Assembly: GCA_002633005.1 (NCBI GenBank)
Contig: NMRA01000201.1
Span: 503,989 to 567,988, forward strand
Direction of reading: 5' to 3'
Length of the DNA stretch: 64,000 nucleotides
Source of the DNA: Phoronis australis
Lineage: Eukaryota; Animalia; Phoronida
Below, one piece after another: positions 3,281 to 62,415 of this stretch. The first letter of the stretch is position 1. Every line of letters begins with the position of its first letter. The translations under genes and the position numbers were made by a program. The notes under the pieces were generated by a model, which was given only the letters and a program-made list of their open reading frames with translations, did no database searches and was not told the DNA's origin.

Positions 3281-4076
3281 CTATGTTAGAGTTGTTTTTT
3301 AATGTTTAAAGAGGCACGGAACACGGAAACTGGTAAAAATACATTTCATTAAAATTATAGCGGTGAACTTCTTGGGAATGCTAACCTGAGAGTTATTCAC
3401 TTTGAATATGCAAGAATTTCTAGAAAAAACGTCAGATTCAATACTTTTAAAATAAAGTTTTCAATTTCTCCACCTCTTATAATATATATGTGCGCATGCG
3501 CTAAAAAGTCAGAATGGCTTCTGCTTGAAATCGTCGTTGCTTTGTTTCTATTAAACGTCAAAGGTCACAATTTCCCTGCAAGGGAAATGTGCTCTGTCTA
3601 CGTCTTACCGTGCCAAATAATGACGTGGACAAAATCGACGAAGTTACAAGCAGTTTGCAAGTCGATTTTAAACTTGAATGTAAAGGAAAAATGCTTTGAC
3701 ATACTACCAAACTGTAGGAATGCTGGGTGATGAGTTTGATCTACGTTTTATTGGCAGAGAAGCACTTATAATGAATGTTGCGATTTAGTCTGTTTTCCAC
3801 GTTCTACCCGACTTTAAAGTAACTCAGTTATGATCACCTATATGAACTGGCTCCCGTTTCATGAAAACCGACGTAAGTTTGAAGACGAAAAAACTAATTT
3901 AAAACCGAAATTCTGGCTAAGTTAAGATCGAAGTCAAGCATTCAGAAAAGACCGCTTCATGATCATGAAATTGGATGCTGTTCATCGATCTTACTGAGAC
4001 AGAAATCAAGTCGATTTTCGACAAACTACATGTACGCTTTTGCCACCTACTGTGAATTCACAAAACTTAATCAGGT
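3281..4076 (+). repeat. Near-identical direct duplicate of 1661-2433
   Basis: Begins exactly at the gap edge; continues past CAGGT without the element that interrupts copy 1. Confidence 0.95.
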
Positions 4077-7000
4077 GGTGTGTGAAAAACGATTTCAGCA
4101 ATAATCTTGGTTTGGAAATATATGGGGGTTTATTTAAATTTTGAATGCACTAAATTAGAATCTGTTTGCTTGAGAACACCCTGGTATGGCTGGAAAATAT
4201 TACTTCGCATGTGCCGGTATATGTCGCACCACATTGTCTCTACGCCACTTGCCGGTTCCTGAATCGAAAGCAGACGATCTCTAGGGACATTAGAGTGTGA
4301 AAAATATCACCGAGATTTGTTCCTCAAGCGTGGTAGTTGTCCTAAATTTTGGTCATTTAGACTAAAAGTCCAATCTTAGAAGGATATTAAACTCTGTTTT
4401 GATGATTTGAACCAATCCCCGTTCTGTCTTCTGCTAATGCGTCATTGGCGCCAATCTTGAACGACAAAAGCAGGAATCAACTAAAAACGTATACTTCCTT
4501 TGTCACAGATTCGGTATCATACTTAGTGGGTGGTCTTCCTCCACAGGAAGTCGGTAAAGTCATATGTCGCGTTTGCCCATTTAGCAGACTTCAGAAGGAG
4601 TTTTCAAAATTTTCAACAAACTTTTGAGAGTTGTTGGGGTTTAGAGAGCATCATTTTGTTTCAGTGAATTGGATGCGAATGTCGTTTTTGATAATATGTT
4701 TATAGGCCAAAACCGAGTTTGATATCCTTTCAAACCTAATCCATAGCAATCAACTTTCGGGCTTAGATTGGGTCGATTTCGGTTTTAATAATGGTCTTAA
4801 GAAATTTCATTAAGGGAAAATAAGTTTGCCCAGCTTAGTCTAATAAGTTGGTTTCATGAAACAGGTCCCTGGTTGTACTATTATATATAGTCATTCGATT
4901 ATTGTATTGGAAAGTGTTGTTTTCTACACTCGATGCAACCAAACAAAAACAGATAATTTCACCCACGTCGTTGTTCAAATTTATTAAGAGATGGTTGTCG
5001 GGGACACCGCAGTAATTTTTAGTGACGTAGAAACCATATGACAGTAAACAACATTCGCCACTAGAACGCACATAAGTGTAAAGCACATGCGCACTGTAAA
5101 ATTGTGCTAGTACAACTACAAATGTAAACCCACCAAACAAAAATAAAAAACTTAGTGAACCACAAAATGCAACCCCTTAATATACCAGATTAGCATTTTT
5201 GTTTTGCTCGAGATATTTTCGTGACACGCGCCATCCTATCACGCTGAGGTTGTGCAGGTATCTTTTCAAATGAAACGTAAATAATGAACCAGGTTACACG
5301 GTCGGCTTGATCGTGCAGAGTTTGTGATCACCGTGCGTTTTCAATCGTTTAAGCGTCTCTTGCGTTTATGAATGATTGCGTCGCCGTAAATGAAATCTTC
5401 GCGCTACCCAATTCGGAAAATTTAGTTTCACCTAGGAACAAACTCAGTTACATTGCATTCGTGTAAAACCAACAATGTAATTTTGTAACTTCAATAGCAG
5501 AATTCCTGCCACTCAACTTTCACTACCCTGTGAACAAAAGATAAGCTATTACGAATCAAGTTGGAATGGGATCTTTCTTCACACTCAGATTTGGCAAAAT
5601 TTCATCGTCTCTCAAGTCCAATTGTGGTGACGTTTAACCTTGTACTTTCTACTATACACCCAGTGAAGACTAACTCAGCTTTTCGGAGGCTCGGTGCACA
5701 CCCTGTTTGGTTTGTCCGAGGTCCTGCGCACTATATAGAAGTCCATGGTTGATACTAATCCTACTAAATAAAACAATGCCTTTGCCATAGTAAACGTGAA
5801 TTCAAATAGGAATCAAGATTTTGAGTTTTCATAATTTTATCTTTTTCCGGTAATGTCTACGATTATACGACTCCCCAGCTCTTATTTTGGTTGTCGCATC
5901 ATGAAAATATGTGTAAACCGTGGTAAAAATCCTTCTATAAACACAGAAAGGGATATCTGCTTGTTTTTGTTCGTAACAACGTAACACCTATTCATGAACA
6001 TTACTAGACAATTCAGATCGTATTCTTGCTGTTGCCAATTTTAGTACTGTTCTGACATGGAACTTGTCCAATAACAAATTGTTTAGATTGTATTTTCTAA
6101 CGAAAGTGTTTAAGTGTGTACTAGATTCGTGGTTTGCTTCTAGCCCTGGGGTTTCTGGTGCTGTGAACAATTGTTTTTGTTTTGTTGAGTTACGCTAGCA
6201 AATACATCTATATTATCTACACTTAATCTGCTTTTACCAATGCTAAAAATCAGATTACGGTTTGAAGTCTCAGTTGTAATACATGTACATGTAGCACTTG
6301 CTTTTCTCGTACAGTAAACTACCTGTCCTGTCAGGTGTTGACATTTTGATACCCGGCTCGCTTAAGAAGTAAATACCCTATACAGCCCTCAAATACAAGG
6401 ATGAAAGGCAATCAATCAAAGCTAAATCGAGAAATCGTGACTGAGTCTCGCCTGATGATCCGCCAAACAACTATGTTTGGTTGGTCAAGCGACAAACGTA
6501 AGTTACCAAAACAAACGTTGCTTTTGTGTCTCTCGCAACAACAGCACGCATGATATACGTTCCGGTCAGTAATCAAGATGTGTAGTTTTCGTGGGAAATA
6601 GCCCATTACTCAGATCAGCAACCTAAAGTTTAAAAATGAATCTGGGGAATTACGCCATACAACTGTTTCGATAAAAAAATCTTCGTGCAGGCAGAATAGA
6701 AACTGACCCGAAATCACATAAAAAATATTCTTAAAATGTTTAGATGATCCCAGAAAGCAGAAGCCGGGTAACGCGCAACTTTGTCTCTCGGGAGAGGCTG
6801 CGCTTCAGAAAATAGTCTCAGTTCTAAAATGCAAATTTAATAATGGTTTGGTGGCGATTATACACCCATAACGTGATTCGTCACGGGCCATTGTACAATT
6901 AGAACGTGAAACTATATTCAGTTGCGACTCGTCCTCATTATGCCAGAGAGAGTCGTGTGATTCGACGTAGACGGCCGCCTATCGCTACGTCCGTCGAATC

Positions 7001-8541
7001 ACTCGCAAAAGCATTATACCAGCTAACTAGTGTAATATAGGCTGTTTCAGCCTGTTCAGGGTTGAAAAGGGTTGCAGAGCATTATTTTATTGCAAAGACT
7101 TTAAACACGATTTGGTGATAACTATTAGAGTTCAACGACTTTTTAAGCTGGTCATGTCTGTAGTTAAATTTCGTGATGACATGTTTTCCGTTACATGTTG
7201 AGATATACCCGGATGTCATGCGTGATGATGAAGTTTTGTAGTAGCCCTCGTCTCACAGCTTGTTGTCGACTATAACTTGCCCACATTCTGTCATCTGACT
7301 GTATGAATAGTAATAGTTTTTTCGGAGTATTCACTATTTACCAATGATTTGCAAAGTGAACTAATCGGACATGAACAACTCAGCCACTGTGGCATCTTTC
7401 TTGAAAGAAAAGAGAGAGATAATATTTTCTAGCCTATCGAGAAGAACATTAATAAATGAAAAAAAAAAATTAAAAATGTTTTCTTTACAGTACATGTAAC
7501 TCCTTCGAACTACGGATAGATAAAATGCAATTGCATCTATTTTTGAAGGTCTACACAACATGTTTCGATGATACAAACTTTCACTTTTTCCAGACGCATA
7601 TTTGCTTTCCAAATCGAGGCCATCGCGTTCTTATTGGTGATTTGAAACTGATTACACATACAATAAATCTGTCGTTCTCTTGGACAGGCCATACTGCATT
7701 GGCTACTGAAACTTTTCCGTCGTGACATGAGTGTCAGTGACTTCAATCCAGTCAGTTTTGCCTACTATTTTCTACCTCATGTTACTTCTCGAGGTGCAAA
7801 GCTACATACGTCCAACTTTGTAACACAAAAAGGGTTAATTAGTGAATTCATGAAACTAGCGTTTCTTGACCCTATGTTTGTCAAAAGGTGACATCGTAAA
7901 TATCACGTAATCAATTGAGTTTGGCCCCGGTAGCGTTTCGTAGAACAAGGTTTTGGGTTGAGATTTCAAAAAAAAAACACGCAAAAACACGCGTATGCAG
8001 ATACTTGTTTGGCAATCTTAGAATGAGTCCTACGATCATTGCGATGATAAAGTGAAGTGAAATTAGTAAGTAAATTGTGGGTTTTGAGAACTGAAATTGA
8101 TTTCTTTCATAAACTCTAATGGGTCTAGTGTGGAGAAATGACGCCTTTGTGTTCCTTTCACGTCAGCAAATCATGTTTAACATACTAAGGAACAGAAAAG
8201 TAGGGCCTTACCGATTTTAAGTAAGGTCCTACTTACATTAATGATTCTGGCGACAGTGGAGGATTTAGTGCTCATTTAGTACCTCTGCACTAATAGCATT
8301 GCTTGCTATTCCTGAAACATGCACTAATGCAGTATATTCTAGTGGTAGTCGTAAATAAACAATTTTACAACTTCTTAAATTGCTCGAGTGCAAGGTGGTA
8401 CTTGAAGTCCTAACAAAGCTGAAGTACCTGGCGTTTGCAATTTTTTGAGGACACTTGCCCCCCCTCCTCCCTACCGCTTCTCATGCCCCTTAACTTAAGT
8501 CTGATTTTATGAATCAGCAAATGTGTCAGTAAGCACAATAC

Positions 8542-14468: not shown

Positions 14469-14506
<38 letters not shown>

Positions 14507-17500
14507 AGCGCACACCAGCCGCACAGGTTCCGAACATGCTTCCTATTTCGGTCAGCACAAAAAGCGCACGCCTCAGAAAATAATCCCTCCCAACTCTCAG
14601 ACGACACACAATTCCCCCATAGCATCGTATGGCTCCTTTATGTATGCTGAACACATCGATATGTCAAGATTTATAAAACATCAATTAATACAAAATTACC
14701 GTATAATACCTTTTTTATAAAATGTGTCATTTGTTCTTACGTCTACGGTTCTTATAGCATTAAATCAAGCATACAATACAATTATTAGCAACTGACGTTG
14801 CATGCTGCGTCTATTTTCAGACCTTCAGGCGGCGTTTGCTCGTATTATGTTCAAGTTTCTTACAAACAGAGCTACAGTGAGAAATACTACACCAGTTGTG
14901 GATTTTTTGGATGGGATCGCTGTACAAGATACAGGTAAGTGCTTTTGCAGAAGCATTTGTTCATTGAACCAACGAGTCGCTCACATGTTATTCTTTACAT
15001 ATGAAAGCATTTCGCCCAGGCATTAAACAGGTTAAATCTGATGGTCAAATGGAACAAAAATACTTGCAGGGTGGCATTATGTTTTAATTAATATCTCGAT
15101 GTTCACTGGCGTAGTCATGCTTTTGCAACAAGCCGTTAAAGGAGAATGCCACCCGATCTAATTAGTCTGTTTTACCGTCTTAATCGGTCTATATCCACGT
15201 CGCCTCTTATACAGTCGACCTCACGTTGCCGAGAAGTGTCGCGTTAACCTGTGAGGAAGGTGTGAAACGACGCAGCGACATCAGTGGTTCGTCTGCAGAG
15301 TGAATGCCGCTATATTGCGGTGCATCGTTCCATTTGTCCGAACTATGAAGCTGCGAAAAAAGCGGGTACATGTATATCCTTTCGACTTCCTCGAGAGCCC
15401 GAAATGCTTAGGAAGTGGCTCGCGGTAGTGAAGAATGAAAATAGCAAGTATGAGGCCGTGAAACATCTCCGTTTCTGTGGCTGGCATTTCGTCGACAGTG
15501 ATTTCTCTGGATGAATTCCGTCTTACCAAAGAATTATACATTCGTTCCGTTGCCTGTGCAGGTTCACGGCGCCTCTCTTTATATTTCTTGATCAGTGTAT
15601 TGCGGTTAGAACTGATAGCCTGTGGAACCTAACGATCCGAGCCGTGAAGTCTTCGTCGGATGAGCTTGACTAAATCGGGACTGGCGCCGGGCGAGTTGCC
15701 ATGTAGACGTTTATTATCCTGCGTTCTGTTTCAAAATGAATTATTCTCATCCTAACCAATGCTTATAAGAAACTGAAACAAAGTCTGTCTCATTAGATAC
15801 AATTTGTAATGGCTTTGCAGTATTCGTAAGTGCAAATGTTGAGAAGTCAGCAATGAATAAACCACTTCGTTACCGGCTGTAGATGCCAGCAACAAAGGTA
15901 CATGTAACTGACCGGGCATCGAGGCCGTGTGAGCGCATGCTAATTCAGTGTTTACTGACAGAAAGCTGTTTTAAAGCAATTACTCGATTTTATATGCTAT
16001 GGTTACACGTTAGAGGAATATTTATTTAGAAATACAAATGCATTATTCAAATCAATGTTACTGTACATTGTCAAGCTTTGCCCTGACGGTCTCTGGAATG
16101 GGAACCCGACTTTGCGGCCTCCGACAAGTAATAGATTTTCAGTTTCGTGGCTAATTCACATAATAATGTGCACAATTGGCTCTCACTATTATAGTCTCTT
16201 CGTGACTGGAGGTTTAGTTTAGAACTCAAGCTGGTTTATATGTTCGTGCCAGTCAGGTCCCAGCGGCCGCGACGGGCCTGAACGGGTTCCGAGCCACTGG
16301 CCGGGATAACGAATCAGTCCGGCCGCGCCGGGTCTGATCGGGTTCCGAGCCACTGGCCGCGATAACAAGCGTTTTGTGTGTTTAGATCTAAAAAATCACA
16401 AGTATAAACAACACAGATCTGGGTTCTGCTGTCTGTATTTCACGGAAGAATACTTCGAATTTATCTCCGAACAGACCTCAAACTCCTGCTTCGGACCTTG
16501 GTAAATTGGCCTGCCGAACTTTGTAGGCTACGGTGTATCCAAATACCAATAAATATGTAACAGCGAAATAAGCGAAATAAAACAACATGTTTTTATAAGA
16601 ACTCGGTGTATTTTTAAGGGTTTTACATCGAAGTTATATTTTGATTTATTGGTGTTGAACGATCAATTCAAGCGGTAAGCTGACACCAGTAACCCGTGTT
16701 GTGAACTGCTGAACAGACTACGTGTGAAACCAATTACGTCCGTCTGCCGTCAGGTGTCAGGTAAGGCAACCGAACGTGCCGTTATCGAGTAGAACTACTT
16801 GATCTAAATTAATACAAAATAGGTTGTTTTTGGTGGCATTCTCCTTTAAAGCCCTGCACATACGGTCGGATTGCAGAGGAATACATTTACTTGTAATTGC
16901 TGAGTACGACAAATCATATGTTTCCGTCAAGAGATTTTCCAGGTCAAATTCGACCAATTTTAGCACTTTCACATTATACGATCTATTGAAACTTAAATAT
17001 GTGCGTGAAATATGAGTCATCACCACAGATGAGACCCAAAAAGTCTAGTTAGTTGTGTTTCGTACCCGACTTGTTTCAAGATCTCAGTGGCTAAAGGAGA
17101 AGCGCCCTCTCGCATCAGTTTCAACCACTGTCTTGTGACGTTTTTTATTTGAAAAGCTGCCCAAAGGCACGTAAATGTAAAGAAGAGTAATAGACCTTTC
17201 TCAAAATTAATGCATGACTCACATTCCAATCCCAGAAGGAGGCTAGTACTGACCAGTCTACAGGAAGCTGTCTGTTTACACTTAATCTCTACAAAAACAA
17301 TTGCACACTGCTGTGTCTCTTGCTGCACAAATAACCGAAAAGAAACAAAGTAGTGTCATTTCGTCAATATCTTACTGACTAAGAGTTAATAAGACAGTGA
17401 CTAGTGAAGATTTGAAGATACAATGTGCCAACTTTGCAAGTAAATTATGACACAATCTGATATCAACTCTAGTCAACTTTAATGTATCACCAGTGGCCGT

Positions 17501-20500
17501 GATGCTTGAATGGCTAGTAACTTTCAAGCACACCATTTCCTAGTAGCACTTTGAACTTCTCCAAAGTAAAGCTTTATTTTAAATAAATAATTTCTGGGAT
17601 TTAAAGAAAATGACAAACTTTGAATGTTCTACAAACACAGTCACAAAAACCGAGACTTAATTCACAGAGACTGCTTGAGTTGTCAGGCTGGACTGAAGAC
17701 AGTCATATAGATTTGTATATATTACAGAAAACTGCAGGTCACACACATACCCTCTCAAGTTTATGAATGAATCATTTCACAGTAAAACAAGCAGTCACGC
17801 AATGATGCAAACACTGGTGTAAACCCTGACTTTCATAATTTTTACAACTCAAAACCATTTTGAATATGAAAAGTTCAATTTCATGTTAACATGCCCCCAG
17901 AGTGGTCAACCTGTACCATGCTTATTCTCCTGCGATTTTTGAGATTCGATATTCAAGTTTTCTAAACAGCTTGGTGTCAGGTAAGTGCACCAAAAACTCA
18001 CATTGAAATTCCAACGGATCAACTGAACCGAATTTCCGAGAGAGAAGTTGATAAGTGCAGATATAGTTTTTAGCTAGACCTTTCATGATCGCGCATGCGT
18101 TTCCCACTCGTTAAGAAGTTTAGTCCCAAACTTTGGGGTTATTAGGTGCAATTTTCTGGTCTTCAGTTGCAGTTTTCTGTTGTCTCAGAATTTTTCAGTA
18201 GGTTAGTACTGACACGTTGTATAAGGGAGAGCGATCATATACACGTGGTTCAACCAATTGCCAATCAACTGATTCTGTCGATAACACAAGTATGACTGAA
18301 AATGCACTATAAGACCCTCAGAGGCGTCAACCGGTACATTTCTTTTAAATGCTTCTTCTGCGATATTTGAGATTGGTTCTTCAAATATCGTAAACAGCTT
18401 GGCCATGTAATTGCACCCACAACGTACACGAAATTTCGATCGGATGAACTGAACTGAATTTCCTGATCAAAGATTGCACGTCTCCCGTCACAAAGATAAC
18501 GTCACTTGATGTACGATCGCCAAATATTTTTTTCTGGCGCTAAGTTTGGTTTCTGATGAGGTTGCACCATAGTAATTACCGCAATTATTAATGTCAGGAG
18601 TAAACGAAGAGCCGGATGAAACGCTTGTGTGTACCAATAATACATATGCGTGTACTTAACATGTTCAAAGCTCATTTGGCCATTTCACCCTCTCTTTGTG
18701 TTTTGGAAAGAATTTTTCCGAGCACAAGAAAGGATAAGGGTAGGGTATGAAGGGGAATCATGGCAGTCAAGGCAAAACTACTCTATTATTACTTTTTCAG
18801 AGTCCTAGGAACGGCAGAACTATCGAATGTGGTTTAATATGGTTTCTCAGTGGTAAAAGTAATGAACCCGACGTCACAGCATTCAGCCATTCCCAATTTT
18901 GGTTGAAAGTTGCGAGACCCATTTCCTTTTACAGTTAACGGGTATGGGGATCACCTTTGACGTTATGTAGTTGCAGGGTAGAGTATTAGCCAAGATTTTT
19001 GCCCATCCGACATTCGCACCCCCGAACTGCCAAATGAAACCTGGGAAAATTTTAGGCATGGCCCCTTGGCCCCCTTAAATCTGCCACTGGATCGACATAC
19101 TTTCGTCCAAGGCAAGCGCATTAATGCCCACACACGGAATTCCGTGTGTCGTTCATCGTGTTTCAACAAGGCCAGTTTTCAATATAGGTGTCACTGTCAG
19201 ACGGTGTCGTAGTCACACGAAAAATGGCGATTTTTGCAACGATTGTCCAACGTAGTGAAATGTTGAGAATTGATCATAAGATGCATCAACAACACTAATA
19301 GGTAGTTCCAGTGGGGCACCTAGGATACCTTAAAGGAGTTAAACATTTGTCTTGTAAGCGTCACCCAGGAAAAAATTGCTTTTGCCTCTAAAAAACAAGC
19401 AATTTACTTGATTTCTGAAGTATTATCAAAGAAGAAAATGAACGTGTAAAATCTCAAATTTTGTAAACGCCTCGTATTTAAACTCACGGCCTGTCTGCAT
19501 GAGCGTGCGTGCTCTACGAGTGCGCCACCATGCGCCCTCTTACAATATTACACTAAGAGACGTACTTGTTTACATGTATGGTCCACAGCGTTTGCGCGCG
19601 AACCTAGTTCATTCGGTAATGCTTATTACACGCTTTATATTTTGTGCAACCAGTTCTTAGCAAAACTTGTTGTATTTAAAAAAGTCTTCAATGGGGCTAT
19701 TCGGAAAATCTACAATAACTAGAAGGCGCGCGTATACTAGCGGTGATAGATTAACAGCCTCGATTTCGCGAGCCCTTTAAATACATGGTGAAATGGCTTG
19801 CAGCCGTGCCAACTGAATCTGAGATTGCGTAAAAAGGGTGTTTCTATGAGAGGAAGTAAGCTCGACCTTATACAAAGGTAAGGTTTGTAATTATTTGAAT
19901 TATTATTCCATATTTATTGTACTGATGCCTGTTAACTGAGGTACTCGCCGGTGTCGACTTCGCGGCATCGCCACTCGGCTTAATCTTTCTTTGGTGTGAT
20001 ATGTGTTACGATACTTGACGTAGCTCTCGGTATCTTTTCGTACATCAAAGCATTATTATTGTTTGGAATGATTTCTAACAGGTTTATCAGTGACAGTTAC
20101 ATCAATCGATGCTGAATGTTTATGCTGTCAACTCGATATAGGTTAATGAGTTAAGATTACAATCCAAGCCCAATGGCAAAGGGTACATGACCAAAATCCA
20201 TTGCATTTGACTATTTGTTTACTCCCTACCACATGTCTTCTGGAAATTTATTACACGTTGAAATGGAAATCTATCACGTCTGTGTTCACGTAACCTTGGG
20301 GTTTTAGGTTTGAGGGCTTCTACCGTGCAGAGGAGATATGCATCGCTTCTGCACCGACCCTGAATTGACAAAAATTGGTTTCAAGCATTTGACTGCAGTT
20401 AACCAACAAGATCTTCCCATCCAGTGCAGATCTGTTGTCAAAACCTAATATTGGAGACAACCAACAAAGCCCTGGAAAAAGAAAGGTATGTAAGTCATTT

Positions 20501-23500: not shown

Positions 23501-26500
23501 TGTGATTTACTTATTTGTGTCCAACGTTCCCAGTTTGCAGCCACATGTTTTTGTTATAATGTGTTCGTAATAGCACATCTACATGTACATATTGGAATTC
23601 TTACATGTATCTATCCTTATGCATATTATTTTCATCTATGACTGAAATCTCTACAACCCAGGTTTGCAGTCACCAAGTAGGATGTGCAGGCGATATGGTT
23701 CTTGGGATATCTTACCTGTGTTTATCGCTAAATGAGGTGACGAACACGAGGAATATAAAATAATTCTAACCGTTTCACGAACACTCTCGCTGTATTTAAA
23801 GTCTGACTCGAACTGTAGTAAGTGCAAAATAAGCTCCTATGATTTGTTAACAGTGTCGACTCTCTGACACACCGAAGTCGTAAGTTGACAAATATAGGCT
23901 TGTTACCCTACTACTGTCTACGTCAGCGCGACAATCCTCAGTAGATTGAAAGGGACTTCTTATAAAAATCCTTTTGGTATAAGAACATTTTCCGTAATCT
24001 CCGACGTCCCTTGACAGAACTGTCTCAAATTTGTTATGTGGAGAGATATAATCCACCATAATTGCTAGCTTTGAGAATGCCGTTACTTGCTCCGACATAC
24101 GGATCTCGAGCTATTCGAAATTTACTTGTCAGATTTTTGTTCTCGTACTAGCTTACATATATTTCGACATGAAATTTACAAACAATGTTCACTTTGTCAA
24201 TAGCTCGATGACCCTTTGTTTCTTTGGCGAAATCGAATGCAAGATAGCAATGTGACGACCATCCTTTTGCGGAGCTCTAGCTCCGCTAGTATCTTTTAAC
24301 AAAAGCTTCTGAATTTCGGTGTGTAAATAGATCTCCCGAAAGGCTACCTGCATTGCATCATTAGTGTCTCGCTACGAATTACCGTTCTCGAGTTATTCGA
24401 GCTTTTCTGATGTGACAGCTGCTCTTTTATTGACTGGTTTTTCAATGCATTGTTGATGGTTTATCATTTACAGCACATTGTTGTGATAGACGTTAATGTC
24501 AACGTTGGTGTTTTCGGTTTTGTTGACCTCAACGCTGAGAATTTCCATCGATTTCGCCAAGTATCGCTCTTCAGAGTTGACTCTGATTTGAAACTCGAGT
24601 CTCCCAGGTTATGTGTTTGTACCGAAGACTTGGTGAAACGCTTGGTTCGATCAACTGATCTACATGTATATAACATTCAAAGGTCTGGCGATAATTAATA
24701 GTAACAGGTCTGGCGATAATTATTAATACAGATTTGCATAACTAGGTCGAATTCGCCAGCTATGAAACCGTCACGCTCTTTGTAAATAAATTCCTTTCTT
24801 CAATGTCTAATGTAGTTTCAGTTCCAAAACTCTAGTCAGTTGGCAAATACACAGAACTGACAAGACGCGTCAAGGAGCTGTGTGCCTGTGCAAATCAGAA
24901 AAATTACGATATATTCTATGAAAGGTAATGCGACTTTTGATAAGGCGTACCACTGGGCACAACTGGCGCAAGGATTTTCATACGACTTCTACTGATTTCA
25001 TTAGGACTGTAATCTTTCCAATTAAACATCTAATCCTTTAATTTAATAAACATATCAAATTGTTGAGGTATGGTTTTTATCTCTTAATTCTGATTTTAGG
25101 ACAAAGTACAGAGTGGCGTACAAGTCGGAAGTGCGATATAAATGTTGTACCGGATATAAAGACAACGGCAACTCGTACTGTGCACGTAAGACATTTTGTT
25201 TATTCACTCCCCAGTTATGCCAGCAACACTTAGTGACGGTTTGTTAAATGTGTTTCAATTACCTTGGTCATTTTAGTTATCTCACACGTTTTGAATATTT
25301 ACCATGGTGAGTGTAAACTATAATTGTTTTGATTACACGCCTCTGTTCAGGTTAACAACGACATCATGGACAAGTCTACTATAATTAGCCAAATTTCTAC
25401 AATGGTATAGATTTAAAATCTGCAAAATTATTGAATTGTCATTAATCTGTCATTAATTGAGATAATTGACCATGTACTTTTAGTAAAAATGAAGGTACAG
25501 TGATAGCAAAACTACGGCATCAACAAAATTTTGTTCAATATAATCATCATTGTTTCATATCCAATATTACAGTTTCTTCGTGAAAAGCGTCAAAGTCCAT
25601 TCGTAACAACTTTTTGGAGAACTTGTGCAAAAAGTGAGGTACGTGAAAGTTTCACGTACATGTAAATCCGAGGAGCCATTTCTGAGATATGGTGTTCCAA
25701 AGTTTGCCAAATTTGATCATTTTTGGAGGGTCCTACTTATCTTTAAGGATGCACCTGAGTGTAATTTTGGTTATCCAACTGGAAACACTGAAGGCAGTTG
25801 TGTGCTTGGTGATAAGGCATCTAGATTGGTTGAAGGGTTTTTGGCTGGTATTAGATCGTCTGTGATCCCGTTGTTCCGTCCCGAAAAACCGCCAGTTTTG
25901 AATTACACCAGCTACTGCTTCGCGTTCTTTGCTAGACGATAATTTGACTTGTTTTTGCGAAGACTTGGCAGCTCATATTCCTTGACACCATGCTCGGCGC
26001 GCAAAATGACACGCCGTGACAAGCCAACTAGTGAGTAAAAACGAGAGCCTGTTCTGCCGAGGTCGTCAAATTACATCTAATTTGACTAAAGAACTTTTTG
26101 AGGCAAATTCCATGAAGGCAAGAGCGTTAAAATTCAAAAGATATTGTCATGAAAAGCAAAAACGAGTTTATTGCTACTCTAAAATACATGTCTGACGGGC
26201 TGGTGCCTCAATGGAACTCCCAAGTCTTGCACGAAATACTAATAGACGTAGGCTTAAATGACCGTGTGAGCAATATTTACATGTACGTTTCTTTGTCTCG
26301 TCGAGGAGAGATTCACTGCGGGTTGTTGTTTTGTTGTTTGTAGCGTTGTGCTTCAACTCCTTCAGTTGTCCAAACGGTGGTACTTGCGCCAAGCCTGATT
26401 ACTGCACGTGCAAAATTGGTTTCTATTCTCCTAGGTGCTATGGTAGGTATGCTTAGTTGTCAAAATATGGAGAACGTGCTGAGAGATGTTTAAAAAGTCC

Positions 26501-30533: not shown

Positions 30534-30593
<60 letters not shown>

Positions 30594-36500: not shown

Positions 36501-39500
36501 CCGGGGGATTTACTGAGACATTACGATCAAGAGGTTGAAAATTTTCTGTCGTGGCTTCGAGGGGCAGCTCAAATTTCTAAGGACCCCACATCCCATGGGG
36601 TTTTGATAATCTTTTATCCAGTACAATATATTAAACACTTTAATCTGGCACTGTGCAGCGCGATACTCAATACCCATCTTCAAATATAAAAACATTTTAA
36701 CAAATACTGTAGTCATGTATGTAGCTGCATGAACAGACGCAACTGAAAGACCTTTGTTAATTGTGGCAGTAGAAGTCAAGGTACTGTACAATTACATGTA
36801 CTATGACAACGTTCGTAAGTGGACAGACGGTGCATGCTCAATTAAGACAGTTGTGGTATTGTGAAAACTAATTGACATACGCGTGAGATTTCCTGCCTGG
36901 TGTACTGTGCGGCATATATGAAAAATAGATGAAGTGAATCGCACAAAGATGGCTGATGGTGCTATTAATCTCACACTTGAACGTCTACACGCGGAGGAAT
37001 AAAAAGTTTGTTCCGGTGTTGCTCCTTGCTATGTAATAGAGGACTTAGAGTCAAATGTTTGTTTATCACAAGTGAAGCAGGTTAAGAAGTGTTATCACCG
37101 AGAACGTAATAAAGTTCATTTACAATTTTGTTCACTTTGCGGTCTAACCGCCCTAAACATTGTCAAACGGAGAACCGTCTGCTTGTGATTCGGCGTGTCG
37201 GAAACACGAGTGAAAACAAAAATAATCTGCCTGCAGTGCTTAGTACGGAAATTATAATCAAAAATAAAACTTTGAATAATGGCGGCCTTCACTTGCATAT
37301 TTGAAAAACCGCTCAAGGTTGCGAACGGTCACCCCCTAAATCATGAATGTCTATGCTTAGGCCACATAAAACAGCAAAGGAAAAACTTTGTCCAGCCAAC
37401 CAAGATTACGTAAAAAACAGGATTTGGCTCCTGGACTAGAAAATGGCATTCCATTCTTACAATTCCATGATAAGCGGGAGATCCTCAGAGGCAAATTCCG
37501 CTTCAATGATGCCCATCGAAGTGTACAATACAATGCAATACAATCCATATAAGCAATAGGAAATATAATAAAATTATTGTATACTATTATACAAACAAAA
37601 TGGTGATACCTATCACCACTCCACAGAATACAACATGATGTCTATAGAACACATTGCCAATGTGCAAGTGATAACTACATTTACATCATCAGTGTACATC
37701 TGTATTTATGTCTGGGCGCGTGTGTATGTGTGCGTGTATGTCTGACGCTCTTTTGCATGGCGCTGACAGACGATGCAAAACTTAAACAGCAAAATAACGA
37801 TAGAACTACATTTTTCAGCGCAGGTTTCTAATTTGAATTCTTCAAGGAAGAATGTATTTTTAATGACTTTGTGGCACATCGTTGGTGCCCCAAAGCTTGG
37901 CTTACCAATCGGGCACTGTACTGAGAATCACATCTGTCTAGTTGTTGACAAATTAGACCAGTTGAATGAAATAGGCGAACATTCTGAAAAAAATTCACAC
38001 CATGACCCCGGCCTTCATGGTATACCTCTTAGCTTCAGAAATTAATCCGATTAATGTGATTTGATTGAGATTTAAAGTTTTCGCAAAACTGAGAAGGCGA
38101 ACCCGGGTTTTGTATTCTTGCTTAAATAATTTTTATTTAAGGAGTTCTGCGAACTCAGAACACCGGAACGCTTTCGGTCGTAGCCTATGTATAAGCAAAT
38201 GCTTGTTTTTCGCGCCAATGTATACAAATGAAATGTGCCCTTACCCTCATTTGAATTGTGTTTCAGATACTGCATGCTGTACGAGGCCAGAGGGGGCGGT
38301 TACTTTAGAACAAGAAATACCGTTAATAACGCAATCGGTGGACCATACTTCTACCCTCAAGTCAAAAGCTCAAATATGGTTTGCATGTTATATGACAGTG
38401 AGCCTCCCACCCACTGTTCTCAAACAAACAGCTGCCCTTCATCCGCTTCTTACCGAGTAGATCCCGTGGGTATTGCTACAAGGATCACCAAGGATTCAAC
38501 TGTTACGGTAACCTACGGAGGTTGGTCGGACCCTGTACATACGTCAGCCTTTCCGGAGTCTGCATCTGGGGTTGATCACTTGGAGCTAGGTCTTTACGGT
38601 ATGGTCGAAAAGTCTTCCACACTCATCGGAGTTGGATCTAAGATTGGCAGTACTAAGAAAGTATCCAATGGGGCAGCCTCGATACAGTTTGCTTTACCAG
38701 GTCAAGGCTTATATGCAGTGATATTGGATGCCAAAGACATAGCCAACAACGTCCGAAGGGCCAGGCGATTCGTCCTCTACGACCCGACGTCTAAAGTCGT
38801 AATAAGTACTTCACACCCTTTGAGAGTGACATCTGCCGCCGCTAATACCAACTATCTTTGGCAAACTAATCATGGTAAAGTAACAGTGCAATGGAGCCAA
38901 CATTTCTACAACGATTTTCATGTACATAATAACATGTTGCGTCAAATTCAAGCAGACGTTTTAGTTTCTGGATATTATGACCAAACAACAGGTGTCCTAC
39001 CGGTGTCTGGTACGCCCAATGTGGATGGAATAACTGAATTTAACTATGGTATTAATTCACTCCAAAGCAATGCTGTGCCGCCGTTGTCGTTGGTGACTCC
39101 GGCGCGGACAACGTCACTAACACTCAGTCCGACAATGCAAGATGGTCTGCAATACAAAATATGGATCCAGGCTACGGACATCATGGGAAACAAAAATATC
39201 GACAGCGCTACACTCAGTATTGATTCGACACCTCCTATCATATCGAAAGCCGGCGTTGTTAATAACGGCAAGAAAGAGCTGTTCGTTCACAGTGACTCGG
39301 ATTTGTCGAAGATGTCTTTTGAGTTTAATGCCATGGACAGCCACAGTGGTCTTCATGAAGTTAAGTGGAAGCTCGGAACGACAGCTTTGAGTTCGGACAT
39401 TAGCCAGGGGTCAATTGCAGTCAAAACGGTAAGGTTGTTCAGCCAACTGCGTTTGATCACCCTATTGCACAAAGTTAGCTATAAACGTGTCCCACAATAC

Positions 39501-45500: not shown

Positions 45501-48500
45501 GAAGAACTCACCGTGTTGTCCCTAAGCAGCTCCAATCTTGGTGTCCTGTTCAGCAGAATCACCGATAGCGTCGAATTCAAGTTTAAATTTAAAGACCTCG
45601 AAGACAATGTTCCGGGGATTTCGTCTGGTGTAAAGAACTATTGGTACTACATTGGTAAGTAGAACATTTTACTTTTGTAAACAGTTATTCACCAAAGTCC
45701 ATTAGATGTATGAGATATGAACACTATGCAGCGATGCGTGGAAAGAAGAATGACCTGCTATCTTTAAGGGCTCGGGTAGATGGAAGTGGTGCTTGGTACA
45801 GTTTTGAAAACGGGAAACTCACTAACAGCCGTGTAATCATTGATAGAACATCGTAGAGGAAGCCTAGGCAATCTTCTGGGCAAAATCTCAGGTCTTCCCG
45901 GCAATAAGTCCAAACAAACGTGTCTAGACTGGTGCACGTTCTGAGAACGAGGATGTAACGAAAGAGACAATGATTTGAACCTGCCAAAAACCTCCTTTCC
46001 CACAGTTCCTCGACATTTTGCATAGGGTGCATGCAAGTCCCAGGACGAGAACGCATTTTTTTGCCATAATCAAAGTAGACAAAGATAGCCTTGTGCACCT
46101 GTAGCTGTTTGGAACACGATCTCGTGTTTACCTTACATGTATTGAAACAGGTTGCGCTCACTGGCGCACGTCGCACATAATGCACAATATCGTAAAACAA
46201 CGTGCGGCTGTGGCCCATTGCCGTTACAGGAAGCCCGACCCGACCTCTACGTGTATAATGATGTTGATTGTCGGTAGATATTCGGCTAAATGCAGCGACT
46301 TGCCCATGAGGTTTCACAGAACAACGTTGTACCATGCACCACAACTGTTGCTAAGTAATTTATAGGCTGTCACTTACCAGCTTCAGGGTACAAGCGAGGT
46401 TACTGTGCTCCAGGATCTTACCCGTTCTCGTCAATCTCCCACCATTCTTTCTCAACGACATACATGTACATATTTCTTCTCTCCCTCCAATGACATCGAT
46501 TGCGCTGAGTGATTCAAAACAATTCATGAGCACACTGCAAACTGTGTCTGAATGTAGACAAGTTTTAGTTTAAAATCGGTTTCGGGAACCGTTGAGTATC
46601 CCATTGACTAAGATAACTGAACAAAACTAATTCGCATGCGTCATGGTGTCAAGAGGCACGCGTGAATGACAGTCAAAACGGATTATCTGCTGCAAATTTG
46701 TAAATTGCGCTATTGAACGACATCTTTCTTCAGCCCATGTCTGCGAATTATGGTATGGGACAGAATATGTCCATTTTATCTTCAGCTTTCAACATTTCGC
46801 GGATTCTAGTTGCTGCTTGACGGGGCCCGTTAAAACACCAGTTTTGAAACGGCCGTATTTTGGCTGTTGTTTTAACAAGTGATAATCATAACATATATTA
46901 TACAACACTAGCGTTAGAGAATTCCATTTTGCTTCTTTTGGGAGGACCATTATCTGTAGAAAAGCTTTTTCGTGAGGCATGGTACATAAATTAATATCCA
47001 TTTCACTCGTCAATAATATATTAGTTGATAGTTTACTTGTTACTGTTCTGACTCACCGTTTAAATTTTAGAGGTAATTTGCAGAATCAAGTGGTAATTTG
47101 CAGAGTGGAGTAATAAATTTATTGATTACGTTTTGCCTACCATATCTACAGGAACGTCAGCTGGCCAGAAAGACGTGGCCAACAAAACCAACGTAGGACG
47201 GCAAACTCATGTTATAGTAGAGAACATTTCCTTGGTCAGTGGGAAGGAATATTTTGTGACAGTTGATGGTGAGTTTTCCCATAAATTACAAATAACACCT
47301 GCTTTGAAATTAAAAACCTTTTGTACTCAACATTTAGACAAAAGCTTGTGTATTAACCTAGTTTATGCCACTTGCATCTACTTCTGCATGTTATGTTACC
47401 CTTGACTTACGTAGTACTTAATTCAAAAGCTAAATGTACGTATAAGCTACACGATCCTCTGAAAGCAACTTCTTTAGTTAACTGAATTACTCGTGGTGGG
47501 TAAAGCCGGTCGACTTCGCTTGAGATTTAGCTGGATGTCATTGTGTCTGAACAAGTTGCCAGGACAACACTGTCTAGACGTAAGTCACCGTTTTAGTAGA
47601 ATGGAACAAGTTTCACTAAACAAACACGACTGTAGGCTAATCGTTTCATTAAACTATCTCGGTCCAATCTTCGCCGATGTTAGATTGGGATCGAGCATAA
47701 CTCTTACGAGAGTCACTTCAAGTTACTTTAGACAATGTTTGCAGTAATAGCATGACCAACATTGAAGAAAATAATCACTCGTTGAATGGGATTGTTGGGG
47801 ATAGTATTGGCAGGCATGCTGTATCTTATACGCCCTTGGGGTAGTCGGCAAATTTTGTATTTGTGCCACGTCGACTATAGCCAAAATATAACTGGTAAAA
47901 TCCCTTGATTAAATTAGAACATCCGATGAATGTATACCGTAATCGAATGTATTTCGTTCTCAATAGCATCCATCAAAGGTGGAAATCTAAGGCCAAACAA
48001 AATACCCTAATTGATCCTTGTCTGTTTTTGTCTTTGAAAATTGAGGTATTGATGAGTGGTTTTAGATGTCCACTTTCAAAATGAAAAAAAAATATTTCGA
48101 TGCTTCTCCGGAGGATTTATGTCCCCCATTGTCACCAGTTACAAGGTTACATGGCAAGTAAATTTTATTCCTATCGTCACTCGATGCAAGATACGATGGT
48201 CGCAGATTATGCATGGTATTAGTTCGTTATTATAAACATTTCACTGCAAGGAAGGTTGTCTGTTTTTCAGCTGAAGATTACGCCGGACACGTGACCTCTG
48301 TTTCATCCAAGCCGTTTCAAGTGGATCCTACGTCACCAGTAGCAACAAATGCCAAACTACGTGTGGGCTCACCACATACTAATTATCAACAGCTGGCTGG
48401 TCATATGTTGCAATTTCATTGGTTTGGATTTGAAGACAGTGAAAGTGGAATAGCTAGATACGAATTCAGAATACACCCCTTTGAGTTCAAAGAGTATTCG

Positions 48501-51500: not shown

Positions 51501-54500
51501 TCACACTACGGCTTGATAGTTGTAATGGCGTACTTCATTTCATTGCTGAATACAACAGAAGCAAATGCAACTTGCGATCGTAAACATTCTTTAGTTTGTC
51601 ATTAGAACAATAAAGACGGAATGTCTCCAACGAACTGTAAGTTTTTCCAAAAACAAGGCGTTGTCTGTAATGGCGTAATTAGAGCCGGGACAACGGGGTT
51701 ATGTTATGATGGCGTGTAAAAAGTGATAAATTTTGGATGACGTAATATGTGAAAGTTCACTCATGAAAGACGTAGTTCCTGAAATAACTGTTCACCACTC
51801 GTTAGCAATTTTGTTATCAAAATTCATTGTGAATGCAAAATTTAGAACAGGTTGAAGTTGATAAGTTCTCCACGATACATAAGTTGATAACGTTGTCCGT
51901 TTTACACGATGTTGCGCTTGGTCGAGTGCCAAAGCTAATTTTCTATGTGGGCTTCGACGGAACGAATTTGCGAAACAAAATATTCTGCTCGTCACCAAAT
52001 TTTCCTTACAATCTCAAAAAGTACAGTCGCCGATAAGAACGTCTCTTACTGGGATGCCGCGTTTTACCTACACTATACTCTTATCACCTAATTACTTTCA
52101 GATGACTCAGTGAAATCAAAGTTTTCAACGACCTCGTTATCATATAGTGGAAGCGGTCTCACCCTTGCTAACGGAGTCACCTATTACACAACTGTAAAGG
52201 CCGTCAACAGCGTTGGTCTTACCACGACCGTTTCATCAGATGGAGTAACGGTAGACAACGTGCCACCTGTAGCAGGGATAGTTTACAACACTAAGAGCTT
52301 CCACAGCATTTCTGCTACCGCAAGCCCTTGTATTGGTGCTTCGTGGCATGGTTTTGACGATATCCACTCACATATCAGGGAATATATTGTGAGCGTTGTT
52401 GACAGTAAAACCGGTAGTGATGTCTTGGTCAACAAGCAATCTGTCGACATCAAGGATTCCGTAGAATTCTGCAACCTTAATTTAAAGCAAAACACTGCGT
52501 ACGTATTTGTCGTTCATGCTAAAGATGCAGCCGGCACTTCCTCCGCAAATGCATCTTCGGACCCTATTCTTGTTGACACGACTCAGCCTATGGGATTCCG
52601 CTGCACAAAATGGGTGCGCAGCTCCCTTACTCCTGAGTCCACGTCATTGTCGAATGAAGTGAAGAGCATTGTGTACAAGGCGGATATAGAAGCAAACAAA
52701 CTTTACAAACTTGTCTTTGAAAGCTCTAGTGATGTGCTTAAAGCCTCTCTTGATTTCCTCGGTGTACATCATAAGTTGAGTTTCATGAATCTTGCGGACG
52801 GTGGTTATTTGGCAACTTATAGTTATACCGCAAGTGCAACTGAGTCAAGTGAGTTGACAGTGAATTTAGCGGCCTCATCAGGAAATATCACCGTGTCCCT
52901 GGATGTGTGCGATGTCGAGACGACCACAGAAGCCAGTTCAGTCGTTGTCCTGAAACAGTTAGGACCCATAGAACTATTGATTTCATTCTACGTTAAAGAC
53001 CACGAGAGTGGAATACGACAGCATCTGGCAGGTATTGGAACAACCGTGGGTGGATTTCAAGTTGCAAAGCTGCATAGCCTAGGCCAGCAAGAACACATGA
53101 CATACGACATGAACTTACCCCATGGTACTCCAGTGTTTGCCACTGTGATATCTGAGAATAACGCAGGGTCCAGGAAGTATTTTGGCTCAAAGAAGCTCGT
53201 GGTTGATCACACACCACCGACGATTTCCGAACTGAAGTTGGTAGTAAACCTTGTCGGAGGATCTAGCTATAGACTGACGACAACGTGGAAAGCGACCGAC
53301 CCAGAAAGTGGAACTAACAGGTGCAATGTTCAGATAGGTAAGATATACGTTTTGTCTGTTGGTGTTGCTTTCTCGGTATCGTGGTATTAACGATTTTGGT
53401 GTCTTGTTATACATGGCACATTAGAATGTGTGAGATGAGAGCGAGCTCGCGCTTAGTGAGAACTCATTAAACTCACCTAAACGCATCTTAGTGTTTGTGT
53501 CATCTCCGTCTGCTATGTGCAGAAAACTAGTGTGCTGATATCCAATGCGTGTTTTAAAGTTCTCCTATAAGGCGAAAATGATGTAATGTTTTAAAGGGGC
53601 CAGCATGTTGGTTGAACAGTTGTTTTTTAACTTTTCAGGCGATGCGCCCCACACAAGCAGTGTCCAGTCTGCGGTCACTGTGATCCCATCTTCTCCTGGA
53701 GTGTATTCATCGACTGGGACAAAAACGCTTTCGCATGGCCAGAAACTTTACGCGACAGCATGGTGTTCCAATCATGCTGAGTTGTCGACAACTTCAGTCT
53801 CTCAACCCGCAACCGCTATCCACCAGGGACCTTCTGCCTCTAGTGCTAGCGTTCGCTTCTTGATTCCCCAAACTATTTACCAGAGAAAAACCGAAACCAT
53901 TGTCAATGCAAACTATCTTCATGTCGCGTGGAGGGGTTTTCGAGACATTTCGAGCAGCCTGACCTACAAAGTTCGTATTTTAAAGGGAAACGCAGAATTC
54001 CAATCGTGGGTAGATGTTGGTCCTCGAACTGATTTCCGTTTTTCCAATCTCTCACTCACAGAGAACGTGTGCTACAAAGCCAACGTGCAAGCCTATAATC
54101 TCGAAGATTTGTCGAGCACAGTCGTGACCAGTGAAGCTTGCGTTGACAGCACTGCTCCAGGATTGACCGGTAAGTAAATATTTCAGAACCAAAAAACAAG
54201 TGCGATGGTTTTAATATTCTCGTGGTGTTTTTTTTCTCAAAGCCTACTAAAATATGCTTAAAATGTTTCTTTGAAGGATGATTTAACAAATATCAAGTTC
54301 CGAAATCAATAGGTCTACAAAAATAGTTACATGTATACAACAACAACAACAACAACAGTTTAGTTGTTCGAAATTCAGCACCTTGTAATGACAGGTTTGG
54401 GCTTGAACTACCAACACACACGTAGAGATGTTGATCAACATTGGGTCATAAGTTAACTTGTGGATTGCAGAAACTTGACGATCCATCATGAAAATATCTC

Positions 54501-56037: not shown

Positions 56038-56119
56038 AATATCGCTAGTGTTGTCATGTGTATCAGCATAATCTCTTGGTAGTAGATGATGCAAATATAC
56101 ATTGTACGTCAATCACCCA

Positions 56120-56265
56120 ATCCTTCCTATCTCTTTCTTTATCTCTCTTCATCCCTACTCCCATGCTCTTCCAAGCCCCCTCCCCTCCCAACCTTCATTC
56201 CTACCACCCTCCTCTCTCCCCTTCTTCTTCTTTCTCTCTGGCTCCCTCTCCGTCTTTACCTCAAT
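56120..56265. repeat. Polypyrimidine low-complexity tract in the presumed 3'UTR
   Basis: Almost all C/T for about 145 nt, starting about 80 nt after the stop. Confidence 0.85.
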
Positions 56266-56360
56266 CCATATATCTAACCTGATATTAAATTTCTCTTTGT
56301 ACAAGTATGTACGCATCTTAATATATGGGTAAATACACGTGCTTCAAGCAGAAAGCAATA

Positions 56361-58409: not shown

Positions 58410-61400
58410 CTTGAAATCGCCGTTGCTTTCTTTCTATTAAACGTCAAAGGTCACATTTTCCCAACTAGGGAAATGTGCCTTGTCTACGTCTTGCCGTAAC
58501 AAATAATAATGTGGACAAAATCGACGAATTTGAAAACAATGTAAAAGTCGTTTTTAAACTTGAAATTCGACCAAACTGTGGGTGAAAAGTTTGACCAATG
58601 TTTTACTGGCAGAGAAGCACTTATAATGAATGATGCGATTTAGTCTTTACAGGTTCTACGTGACCTTAGAGTAACGCAGTTGTAATTACCTACATGAACT
58701 GGCGCCCGTTTCATGAAAACAAACTTAAGATTTAAGACCAAACGTTTACAAGACAAAATGTTTTTCCCCCCTCCCCCTTATGATATTCTAGATCCGCCGC
58801 ATTAATCGCCCAGAGTCTATTTGTGGTCACCATGAGTCTGCAATCCTTCAAGCGTATCTGCGTTCATAAATGATTGCAGCGCAGTGAATTAATTATCGGG
58901 TTGTTCTATTCGGAAAATTTACTTTCACCTGGGAACACAACTCAGTCACTTGCCGGTACACTGTATTCGTGTAAAACCAACATAGGTGTAATTTTGTAAA
59001 CTCAAAGGCAGAATTCCTGCGACTCAACTTTCATCACCAGGTGAAAATAAGATAACATATTACACATGGAGATGAAATCTTTAGTCACACTCAGACTCGC
59101 CAAAATTTCGCCGTCTCTCAAGTGCAGTTTTAATCTAATATTTTCAACTCTGCACCCAGTGAAGACCGACTAACCCTTTTAAAGCTCGGTACAAACCCCT
59201 GGTTGATTTGCGCGAGCACATGCATACTTTATAGCAGTCTGTGGTTGGTTATACTCTACTGAATAAACCAAAGCCTTTGCCATAGGAAAATGGTATTCAA
59301 ATGGCAATCAAGATTTTGACTTTTTCATAATGAAATTCTTTTCCAGCAATGTCCACGTTTCTACAACTCCCCAGATCTTTTTCTGGTAGTCGTATCAGGT
59401 ACATGTAAATATGTGTAAACCGTGGTAATAATCCGTCTATAAACACAGAAAGGTGTAAATGCTTGATTTTATTCGTGACAGAGTAACACTTATTCATGAA
59501 CGTTGCTACACTATTTAGGTCGTATTCTTTATGTTGCAATTTTTAGTACTGTTCTGGGGTTATGAACAATTGTTTTTTTTTTTGTATTTGGATTACCCTA
59601 CCAGTCCTAATCTGGTTTTAGCGATGCTAGAAATCAGATTCCGGTTTGAATTCTCCGATCTAATAGCTTGCCTTCCTGGTACGGTAACTACTTGTACAAG
59701 CAGATGTTGATACTTCGATCCCCTGGTCAATTAATAAATAAATACCCTCTGCAGCACTCAAATGCACGAATGAAAAGCAATTGACCAAAGCTAAGTCGTG
59801 AAATCCAGACTGAACCTTGCCAAACAACTATGTTTTGTTAGACAAGCGACAAACGCAAGTGATCCAAAACGAACGTAGCTTTTGTGTCTCTCGCAACAAC
59901 AGTGCGTGTATGTTCCGGTTGGTAACCATGATATGCAGTTTTCGTGGGAAATTGTCCATTACTCAGTATTGCATCATGAGGTCTAGATATTAATCTGTTG
60001 AATTACGCCAAACAACTGTTGCGATAAAAGAAATCTTTTTGCAGACGGAATAGCAACTGATCCGACGGCACGCAAAAGATGTATTTCTAAGGTGTTTAGA
60101 TGATCCCAGAAAGCAGAAGCCGAGTAACGATAAACTTTTTGTATTTCGGGGGAGGCTGCGTTTCAGAAAAACGTCACAGTTCTAAAAAGCAAGGTTAATG
60201 CTGTTTTTGTGGCGATTACACCCATAGGGTGATTCTTCACGGGCCATTGTACAATTAGAACGTGAAACTATATTCAGTTGCGACTCGTCCTCATTATGCC
60301 ATAGAGAGTAGTGTGATTCGACGTAGACACCTGACTATCGCCACGGCCGTTGAATCTCTCGGAAAAGCGTTGAACCCGCTTATTGATGTAGTACATAGGC
60401 CGTTTCAGCCTGTTCAGGGTTGAGAAGGGTTGTGGGGCATTATTTTATTTCGAAGACTTTAAAAAATGATTCGACATTTTAAGGGGGCCATGTCTGAAAT
60501 ATATGTAACATTTTGCGAGTCTTCAAAACAAATTAACACACGCCTTCCCTATTTTGTCCATTAACTCCTGGACTACTCTGTCAGTACAAATTAAGAGACA
60601 GTAATAAGTTTTGACGAAGATGCCACCGAGATTTTACCATCAGGGTTCGATCACAGTCTACCACCTCCTGCCAGTTTGGTGAAGATTGCTTGGACTGTCA
60701 ATTGCATAATTCGTCCCGACAAATTAACTGCCGATCCCCTAATTATACGACCGAGACTTCCTTAAACGTACATAACCTGTGTTCTAATTTAAGACTTCCG
60801 AATTCAAACAGTCAAAAAGTACTCAACTTGGCGGCCACAGTCGCCAGATACGTAAAGGGGGTAATACAAAATCCCCTATGTCCCGAACCCCGTACATCCG
60901 ACACAGTTGAAATTTATTTTCGTTGCCACCATTCTTTCCTCTTCTGGTCGATGATGTCCTTTCCCTTCTGACCGTCGCTTCACGTAAACTCCTGTGAGGC
61001 TGGGATGGCATCCTTAATGCGCTGGTGGGACCGTGTGGCTACCAGATTCATAAAAAGATGCCAAAAACGTGAATACGAATAGGATGCGAAAATACATATA
61101 TATGTCGCACACCCGTACGAACAGGATGACATTCTCCTAACTAGAAATGGTCTCAAAGTACGCTGGTCAATAAAACTTTGTAGGGGATTTTCAAATTTGT
61201 ATTTCCGAAGCCGAGCTGAAGTTAAGACTTTAGTGGATAATGATAGAGTGAGTCAGCATAAATAACGAGCAAACACATTTTTTCTCCGATACGGTCGAGT
61301 GTAATACGGCCATGTAATAATGTTTTCCGTATTCACCTCCAGCACTACTTCATCACTGACCTCTGACAAGGAAAGTTCAAAACGTAGGTCAATGTCGATT

Positions 61401-62415
61401 CGACGTCGTTAGCCAGTTCGATCATCAAACTTTCTGAAAAAAGTTTAAAGTAAAATTGCAGCAGTGTAAATAACACTCAACAGTCAATCAGGTCCCAATC
61501 GTAACATCTGGAACAGGACTGTTAATTATATGACTGTACTGTCTCAGTTTTTAATTGCTAAATATCATATCGTCTGCAACTCAGGCGCCGATTCCTCGTT
61601 AACTACCGTGCCAAATATTTTTGTTTAACTATTTTCAGATGTTACAAGTTCAGTGCACACTTACCGTTGTTTTTACGTTTGTTATCTCTTTTCAAATAAT
61701 AAATCGTTACATTTAGAACGGTTTCTTTTACTAGAGAAATCATAAACTAACTCGCAAGTACATGTACATGAAGGATGTGATCTGCCACGTGAACAGTCTG
61801 AGCGAAGTATTTAAGAATATGCCGAAAAAATGAAAGAAACTTAGGAATTCGAAGCGTATGGGATAAATACTAAACGTACCTAGATTGGCGTAGATGAAGT
61901 AATATCCCACTCGACATTATTCCAAGTATTGATACGTGGAATAATGTCGAGTGGGATATTACTTCATGTATCCCTGTCTAGGCACGTTTTATGTATTTAT
62001 TTTAAACTGGGTCAGCCTGACTGAAATGTGTCCATGTAGCTGTACCATGAAGACGTGAGGCCACGCGAGATATCTTCATGTATTACAAGTGAAGCACTTG
62101 ATCACACCAGCTTCCTTCGCAAGATTATTGCGTCTGAGAAGATCAACTCACTACATGTACACAAATAGTGTATTGGGTCTCTCAGAGGAGTTTCTTTAAA
62201 ACACATCCGCGCTAACTTAAATCGAGTTCGTGACGCTGGTTTTATACGATGAAAACTCTCATGAAAAAATGTTCAAACTGCAACAATTCCTTTGGATGGT
62301 TTGAAATCTTGAACTAAGCTCATTCACAAGTGGGCATTCTCTGTTCCAATAGGAGCCACTAAGTTTCCGATAACTGAATCTTATCGTTGATGCATTGTCA
62401 TTGAGTAAAGCTCAG
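58410..62415 (+). repeat. Diverged collinear paralog of about 3520-12785
   Basis: Ordered matching blocks: 3520-3870/58410-58720, 5310-7140/58805-60480, 11200-11240/61162-61200, 12355-12785/62000-62415. Confidence 0.88.
61863..62000. repeat. Palindromic hairpin element
   Basis: Perfect 31-bp arms 61894-61924 and 61937-61967 around a 12-nt loop, extending imperfectly to 61863/62000. Confidence 0.9.

Follow-up and report, generated by a model that had tools for sequence, protein, structure and literature searches.

Excision scars of Tc1/mariner elements are known from C. elegans, where the usual Tc1 footprint is TACATA or TATGTA, at 73-78% in the portion of the report available (10.1101/2022.08.01.502254). 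The form taCATGta is named as a rare Tc1 footprint in the accessible text of PMC3520976, which cites Eide and Anderson (1988). For Sleeping Beauty the canonical footprints are TACAGTA and TACTGTA (+5), and TACATGTA is not among the eight footprints given in the part of that report available (10.1101/659086). The same octamer has been described in Phytophthora as motif-1 where, within the text available, it is read as a regulatory motif and the footprint idea is rejected (PMC3520976). The subject of PMC2997562, as far as its accessible part goes, is a 90-bp palindrome distinct from the TACATGTA scar.

The 64-kb window, by which is meant the whole stretch of DNA analysed here, carries TACATGTA in a form that can be compared with each of these systems, so far as the available parts of those accounts extend. 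It resembles C. elegans Tc1 and Tc3 in its TA target, in the CA..TG end bases retained between two TAs, and in an A-3/T+3 motif; it differs in that +4 forms dominate there, whereas here the +6 form dominates, and the scars make up a natural field with one about every 2 kb. Sleeping Beauty is alike in its TA duplication with retained end bases and its target motif ANNTANNT (PMC8934666), but its canonical scars are +5, words for which the window shows no enrichment. Phytophthora motif-1 is the same octamer and is likewise very abundant in non-coding DNA, but there it is read as a transcription-factor site, whereas here it arises when 6 nt are inserted at a TA in one copy of a repeat. Excision footprints as such are already known. 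A dense natural field of the +6 form is apparently undescribed, no account of a dense natural TACATGTA footprint field having been found in the literature, in a search that left aside subscription journals and repeat databases. Narrower look-ups for a recovered donor likewise gave nothing.

The copies of TACATGTA in the window are best read as 6-nt insertions at TA, and are probably excision footprints of a transposon of the IS630-Tc1-mariner kind with ends CA..TG. Because cut-and-paste excisions are generally assumed to leave nothing behind that can be read later, their historical rate is hard to measure. With a uniform scar roughly every 2 kb in non-coding DNA, excision rate, target preference and repair route would become readable from ordinary alignments, and TACATGTA words recovered in motif searches may be a mutational product rather than a selected site.

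Abundance and placement of the octamer

There are 33 copies of TACATGTA in the window, at 31 loci, with doubled copies at 6280 and 28464; the density is about one per 2 kb. Markov models of orders 1, 2, 3 and 4 give expected counts of 1.43, 1.64, 2.26 and 3.83, and the excess in non-coding DNA is about 20-fold; the original count of about 30 copies against roughly 2 expected is borne out. An order-5 model gives 14.3, although that model derives mostly from TACATGTA itself. Once (TG)n microsatellite words are set aside, TACATGTA ranks top among 8-mers for enrichment, and every other TA-NNNN-TA word is present in at most 8 copies in the window. The 24 one-mismatch variants total 51 against a background of 33-36, which leaves an excess of about 15-18 compared with about 31 for the exact word. 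From this ratio we infer that most scars are probably young, with a divergence of about 6%, a value near that by which contigs resembling a second haplotype differ here (65 differences over 1,215 nt). The word TTCATGAA is present in 12 copies against about 2.7 expected, at least half of which sit in repeat copies.

The loci are as follows, all without strand:

4027..4034, TACATGTA scar, the TA being empty at 2390 and also in the third copy (near 10461); clean 6-nt gap, 95% identity
6280..6293, doubled scar TACATGTACATGTA; empty TA at 59664; gap-free in one contig
7491..7498, TACATGTA without a partner copy, from the word count
15367..15374, scar in the THAP-domain frame of a decayed element, with the empty TA of the partner at 28568
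15899..15906, scar whose partner near 28046 has the empty TA
19571..19578, scar whose partner at 8869 has the empty TA
23580..26573, six TACATGTA loci (23580, 23602, 24661, 25657, 26278, 26566) without partner copies
28464..28477, doubled scar; empty TA at 15449; clean 12-nt gap
28918..28929, TACATGTA followed by CATA (stacked)
33273..36800, ten intronic loci in the 5' part of a giant WSC/fibronectin-III gene; densest cluster
46134..46468, two intronic loci (46134, 46461); 46134 is retained in a contig 5% diverged
54328..54335, intronic TACATGTA
59400..59407, +6 relative to 5902 (partner AA), from the pair alignment
61759..62703, three loci: 61759, 62152 (empty TA at 12549) and 62696

The locus at 7491 was also considered as an exon start, and was rejected as such in view of having neither homology nor Pfam support.

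None of the 31 loci falls in the 15 hand-drawn host exons (9,631 nt, holding 540 of the 4,230 TA sites; P 0.014), a pattern for which purifying selection would be the likely cause. The earlier claim that exons are free of the word holds for host exons, with the qualification that the scar at 15367 lies inside the THAP-domain frame of a decayed element. The scars are also unevenly spread: ten loci lie within 3.6 kb (33273..36800; P 0.0008), and six neighbours, the two doubles included, lie no more than 50 nt apart (P 0.0002). TACATGTA is followed by CATA in 5 of 62 instances, against a background of 0.005; such stacks may represent a +4 footprint added to a +6 one, or merely a favoured flank. 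All five (23580, 28918, 35226, 35370 and 46461) have the same orientation and none the reverse, numbers too small to judge. No link between scars and CpG depletion was seen across the window, where CpG observed/expected per 2 kb ranges from 0.53 to 1.16, mostly 0.8-1.1, and is 0.95 in the densest bin.

Paired repeat copies

Aligned repeat pairs span 10,436 nt, and 8 of the 31 loci fall within them. At all eight the word is present in one copy only, none being common to both, and removal of CATGTA brings TA opposite TA at seven (4027, 6280, 15367, 15899, 19571, 28464 and 62152); at 59400 it brings TA opposite AA. The original observation that repeat pairs show TA in one copy and TACATGTA in the other at the same site is thereby confirmed, though the listed pairs are of uneven quality. 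Three are clean (4027/2390, 19571/8869 and the doubled 28464/15449, at +12). After removal of CATGTA the pair 62152/12549 aligns without a gap, and 15899/28046 is gap-free at the site and has another gap, of 4 nt, about 10 nt upstream. A second small indel is needed in two pairs: 6280/59664 requires one additional 2-nt indel, and 15367/28568 has a separate 4-nt indel in the neighbouring T run, where unforced alignment gives only +2. The weakest pair is 59400/5902, which shows +6, yet has AA with CATG at the site in the partner.

As a control, 6 nt were removed at other TA sites. Removal raised the alignment score at 7 of 7 scars, whereas among the 606 other TA sites it did so at 34 (Fisher P 4e-9), the locus at 4027 being left out for lying too close to the end of its aligned block. 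The change is taken to be an insertion because deletion would require the loss of each paired word from one copy. The direction that had been anticipated is also that given by the third copy near 10461, which agrees along 40 nt with the empty version of the 4027 site; polarisation by such an outgroup copy applies to this one site. At 7 of the 8 empty sites there is no CATG within 25 nt, and the hexamer was therefore not locally copied there. It is CATGTA whatever the flank, as originally noted. A search for decayed scars found 6 one-mismatch words in repeat pairs, of which only that at 6203 lies inside an insertion, itself 19 nt long.

Sequencing data came from two samples, the first with four runs and the second with a single raw-read run. 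Eight loci between 34269 and 36793 are reproduced without differences in contigs of three libraries, all from the one sample, an agreement which excludes assembly error, the contigs not being independent support. Where contigs span the scars at 46134 and 4027, the scar is present: a contig 5% diverged (1,244 letters against 1,215, where only 3 of the 35 gap letters are deletions) retains 46134, and a variant contig that differs by 2 substitutions and 7 added letters retains 4027. Neither a CATGTA indel nor a loose TA-CA end was seen among the indel rows listed (12 of 91 and 12 of 41), in which repeat-derived rows dominate, and these rows contain neither an empty nor a filled allele. In unique stretches the raw reads of the second sample reached a depth of about 1-10.

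Flanking bias, donor and competing explanations

When the loci are collapsed to TA, 37 of 62 half-sites have T at +3 or A at -3, against 0.319 at non-coding TAs (P 6e-6), and permutation taking the best of 24 cells gave 1/5000. Both A-3 and T+3 are found at 11 of 31 loci, against 0.105, and the bias persists when half-sites starting CA are left out (30 of 54 against 0.324). In the parts of the reports available, the target motif ANNTANNT of SB100X, a Sleeping Beauty transposase, conserves positions -3/+3 (PMC8934666), and the target motifs of Tc1 (CAYATATRTG), Tc3 (AWATATWT), Minos (ATATATAT) and Mos include them (PMC2577343). The A-3/T+3 preference seen here matches the published target bias of Tc1/mariner transposases. 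Being independent of the scar's own letters, the flank bias adds separate support to the excision-footprint reading. The +1 position differs: it favours C (23 of 62 half-sites, 13.5 expected), in contrast to the AT-rich -1/+1 of published Tc1/mariner motifs, which is absent here.

No element with inverted repeats of the form TA-CA..TG-TA was found in the 64 kb (387 TACA by 366 TGTA sites, with 2 weak matches, neither credible), and a Pfam scan of 115 frames in the window found no DDE transposase domain, as did a smaller scan of 11 frames. The original statement that no intact donor is recognisable in this window stands on both counts. When a metagenome was scanned with 20 nt taken from a high-copy repeat, the one locus recovered lacked TACATGTA and was unlike the window. 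The 1.1-kb element at 56357-57471 was considered as a donor; it has 39-nt inverted ends of 97% identity and is readable as TGTGAC..GTCACA between two TAs, and it was rejected because its ends are TG..CA. The word TATGCATA is not enriched (2 copies against 1.1 expected).

How such scars might be formed can be outlined from what is established for the family. In the available part of PMC2170065, Tc1/mariner transposases cleave 2-3 nt inside the 5' ends of the element and duplicate TA. A transposase would first choose a TA with A at -3 and T at +3, as the bias observed here suggests, and insertion would duplicate that TA. Excision, with a cut 2-3 nt inside the ends as established, would leave TA plus CA or CAT on each flank; the host would then join the ends with both overhangs retained, giving TA-CATG-TA. 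Either fill-in of two CA overhangs or AT annealing of two CAT overhangs could yield this product, the two routes being indistinguishable here. With a scar in place, the left of its two TAs has a T at +3 and the right one an A at -3, so that repeat visits would be expected. Each of these TAs then already has one half of the favoured target, which would make new landings there more likely and might explain the doubles, stacks and close pairs. It is tempting to suggest, although this fuller picture is doubtful and we hold it only tentatively, that a CA..TG family with both-overhang repair wrote a fixed palindrome about once per 2 kb, and that the scars improve their own TAs so that the process feeds itself. 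If that were so, the scars would be a countable, datable record of germline excisions; the family would be a sequence-specific mutator seeding Irx-like binding sites; and the TACATGTA 'motif' of other lineages, such as Phytophthora, could share this origin.

The original reading as cut-and-paste footprints is supported in part: the insertion direction, the fixed hexamer and the lack of a local template speak for it, but no donor was found in the window. Its 'Tc1-type' label is loose. TACATA and TATGTA occur 23 and 25 times against a background of 17-20 each, at most slightly raised, and the Sleeping Beauty words TACAGTA and TACTGTA show no clear enrichment in the window. Since the usual Tc1, Tc3 and Sleeping Beauty footprints are not clearly enriched, the donor or the repair pathway would have to differ from the textbook case, and the scars may be said to behave like Tc1/mariner footprints with another spectrum, from a putative donor family not represented in the window. 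The same facts could be accommodated by a TA-targeting DDE element outside Tc1/mariner proper, or by a domesticated transposase, with CA or CAT ends. The main scar here differs from the main Tc1, Tc3 and Sleeping Beauty scars in the published portions available, C is favoured at +1, and the window has no Tc1 transposase. The alternative is nevertheless unlikely, given that A-3/T+3 targeting of TA is the published Tc1/mariner pattern and that TACATGTA is itself reported, in the text available, as a rare Tc1 product.

That the word is instead a selected transcription-factor site, as proposed for Phytophthora and with TACATGTA reported to be the site preferred by the Irx homeodomain, is very unlikely. 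The accessible text of PMC3520976 does take the same word as a regulatory motif, TACATGTA occurs in the abstract of PMC11134190, the densest cluster lies close to the 5' end of a gene, and exact copies exceed background by more than one-mismatch copies do; young scars, however, would equally give a low one-mismatch excess. Selection would not be expected to yield what is found at the paired loci, namely complete 6-nt insertions confined to one copy of each old repeat pair, with 8 of 8 unshared and one in a dead THAP frame, and site selection is disfavoured for that reason. Conservation between homologous copies, which a transcription-factor site would be expected to show, is seen at 0 of 8. 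Some scars could secondarily be used as binding sites.

A little less likely again is an origin without any transposon, by local slippage, template switching or polymerase-made palindromic insertion at TA. The doubles do resemble tandem repeats, a TA-flanked 6-nt gain of different letters at 16027 looks like slippage, and the empty copy at 5902 has CATG at its site. Such processes would, however, leave the A-3/T+3 bias unexplained, and they sit poorly with one hexamer regardless of flank, with the lack of a template within 25 nt at seven of eight sites, and with the low counts (at most 8) of all other TA-NNNN-TA words. Artefact of assembly or sequencing, or recurrent deletion from an ancestral motif, has a negligible chance of being right: the copies at 1661-2433 and 3281-4076, which are 95% identical, do lie to the left and right of an N gap and could represent two haplotypes, but contigs from three libraries reproduce eight loci exactly, and deletion would have had to remove all 8 paired words from one copy and keep none in both, with the third copy at 10461 also empty.

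Setting of the window

The window has about 40% G+C and three N gaps, and consists mostly of decayed repeats outside one giant multi-exon gene on the forward strand (32684-56033, +), which encodes many fibronectin-III/Ig-like repeats together with a WSC domain. The closest relatives of this gene share only 23-29% identity and carry fibronectin-III families; two named ones are from a ribbon worm and a coral, which points to an invertebrate. CpG observed/expected is about 0.9-1.0 even in the gene body, and there is therefore little sign of CpG methylation.

Several other elements were seen. The copy at 1661-2433 is scar-free and is broken at position 2435 by an element that starts with CAGTGGCGG, while that at 3281-4076 is scarred and lacks the element; the two are possibly haplotypes laid in tandem, which would make the scar at 4027 heterozygous. 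At 4380-4730, within an older repeat, lies an element of high copy number, roughly 350 nt long and bounded by the inverted ends AAGGATAT.. and ..ATATCCTT, whose summed contig depth is about 13,700 compared with about 50 in unique DNA; we take it to be perhaps a TTAA-targeting Kolobok-like MITE. The segments 15136-16528 and 27463-28801 are inverted copies, 75% identical, of a decayed element, and bear 3 of the 8 paired scars; the THAP-domain frame of this element lies at 15266-15511 (E 7e-7, Pfam scan). A DUF5641 frame on the reverse strand (63226-63759, -; E 1e-14) presumably marks the integrase-side end of a BEL/Pao LTR retroelement. Two palindromic elements of about 130 nt lie at 61863-62000 and 30966-31093, and the one at 30966-31093 is a member of a repeat that appears in many reads.
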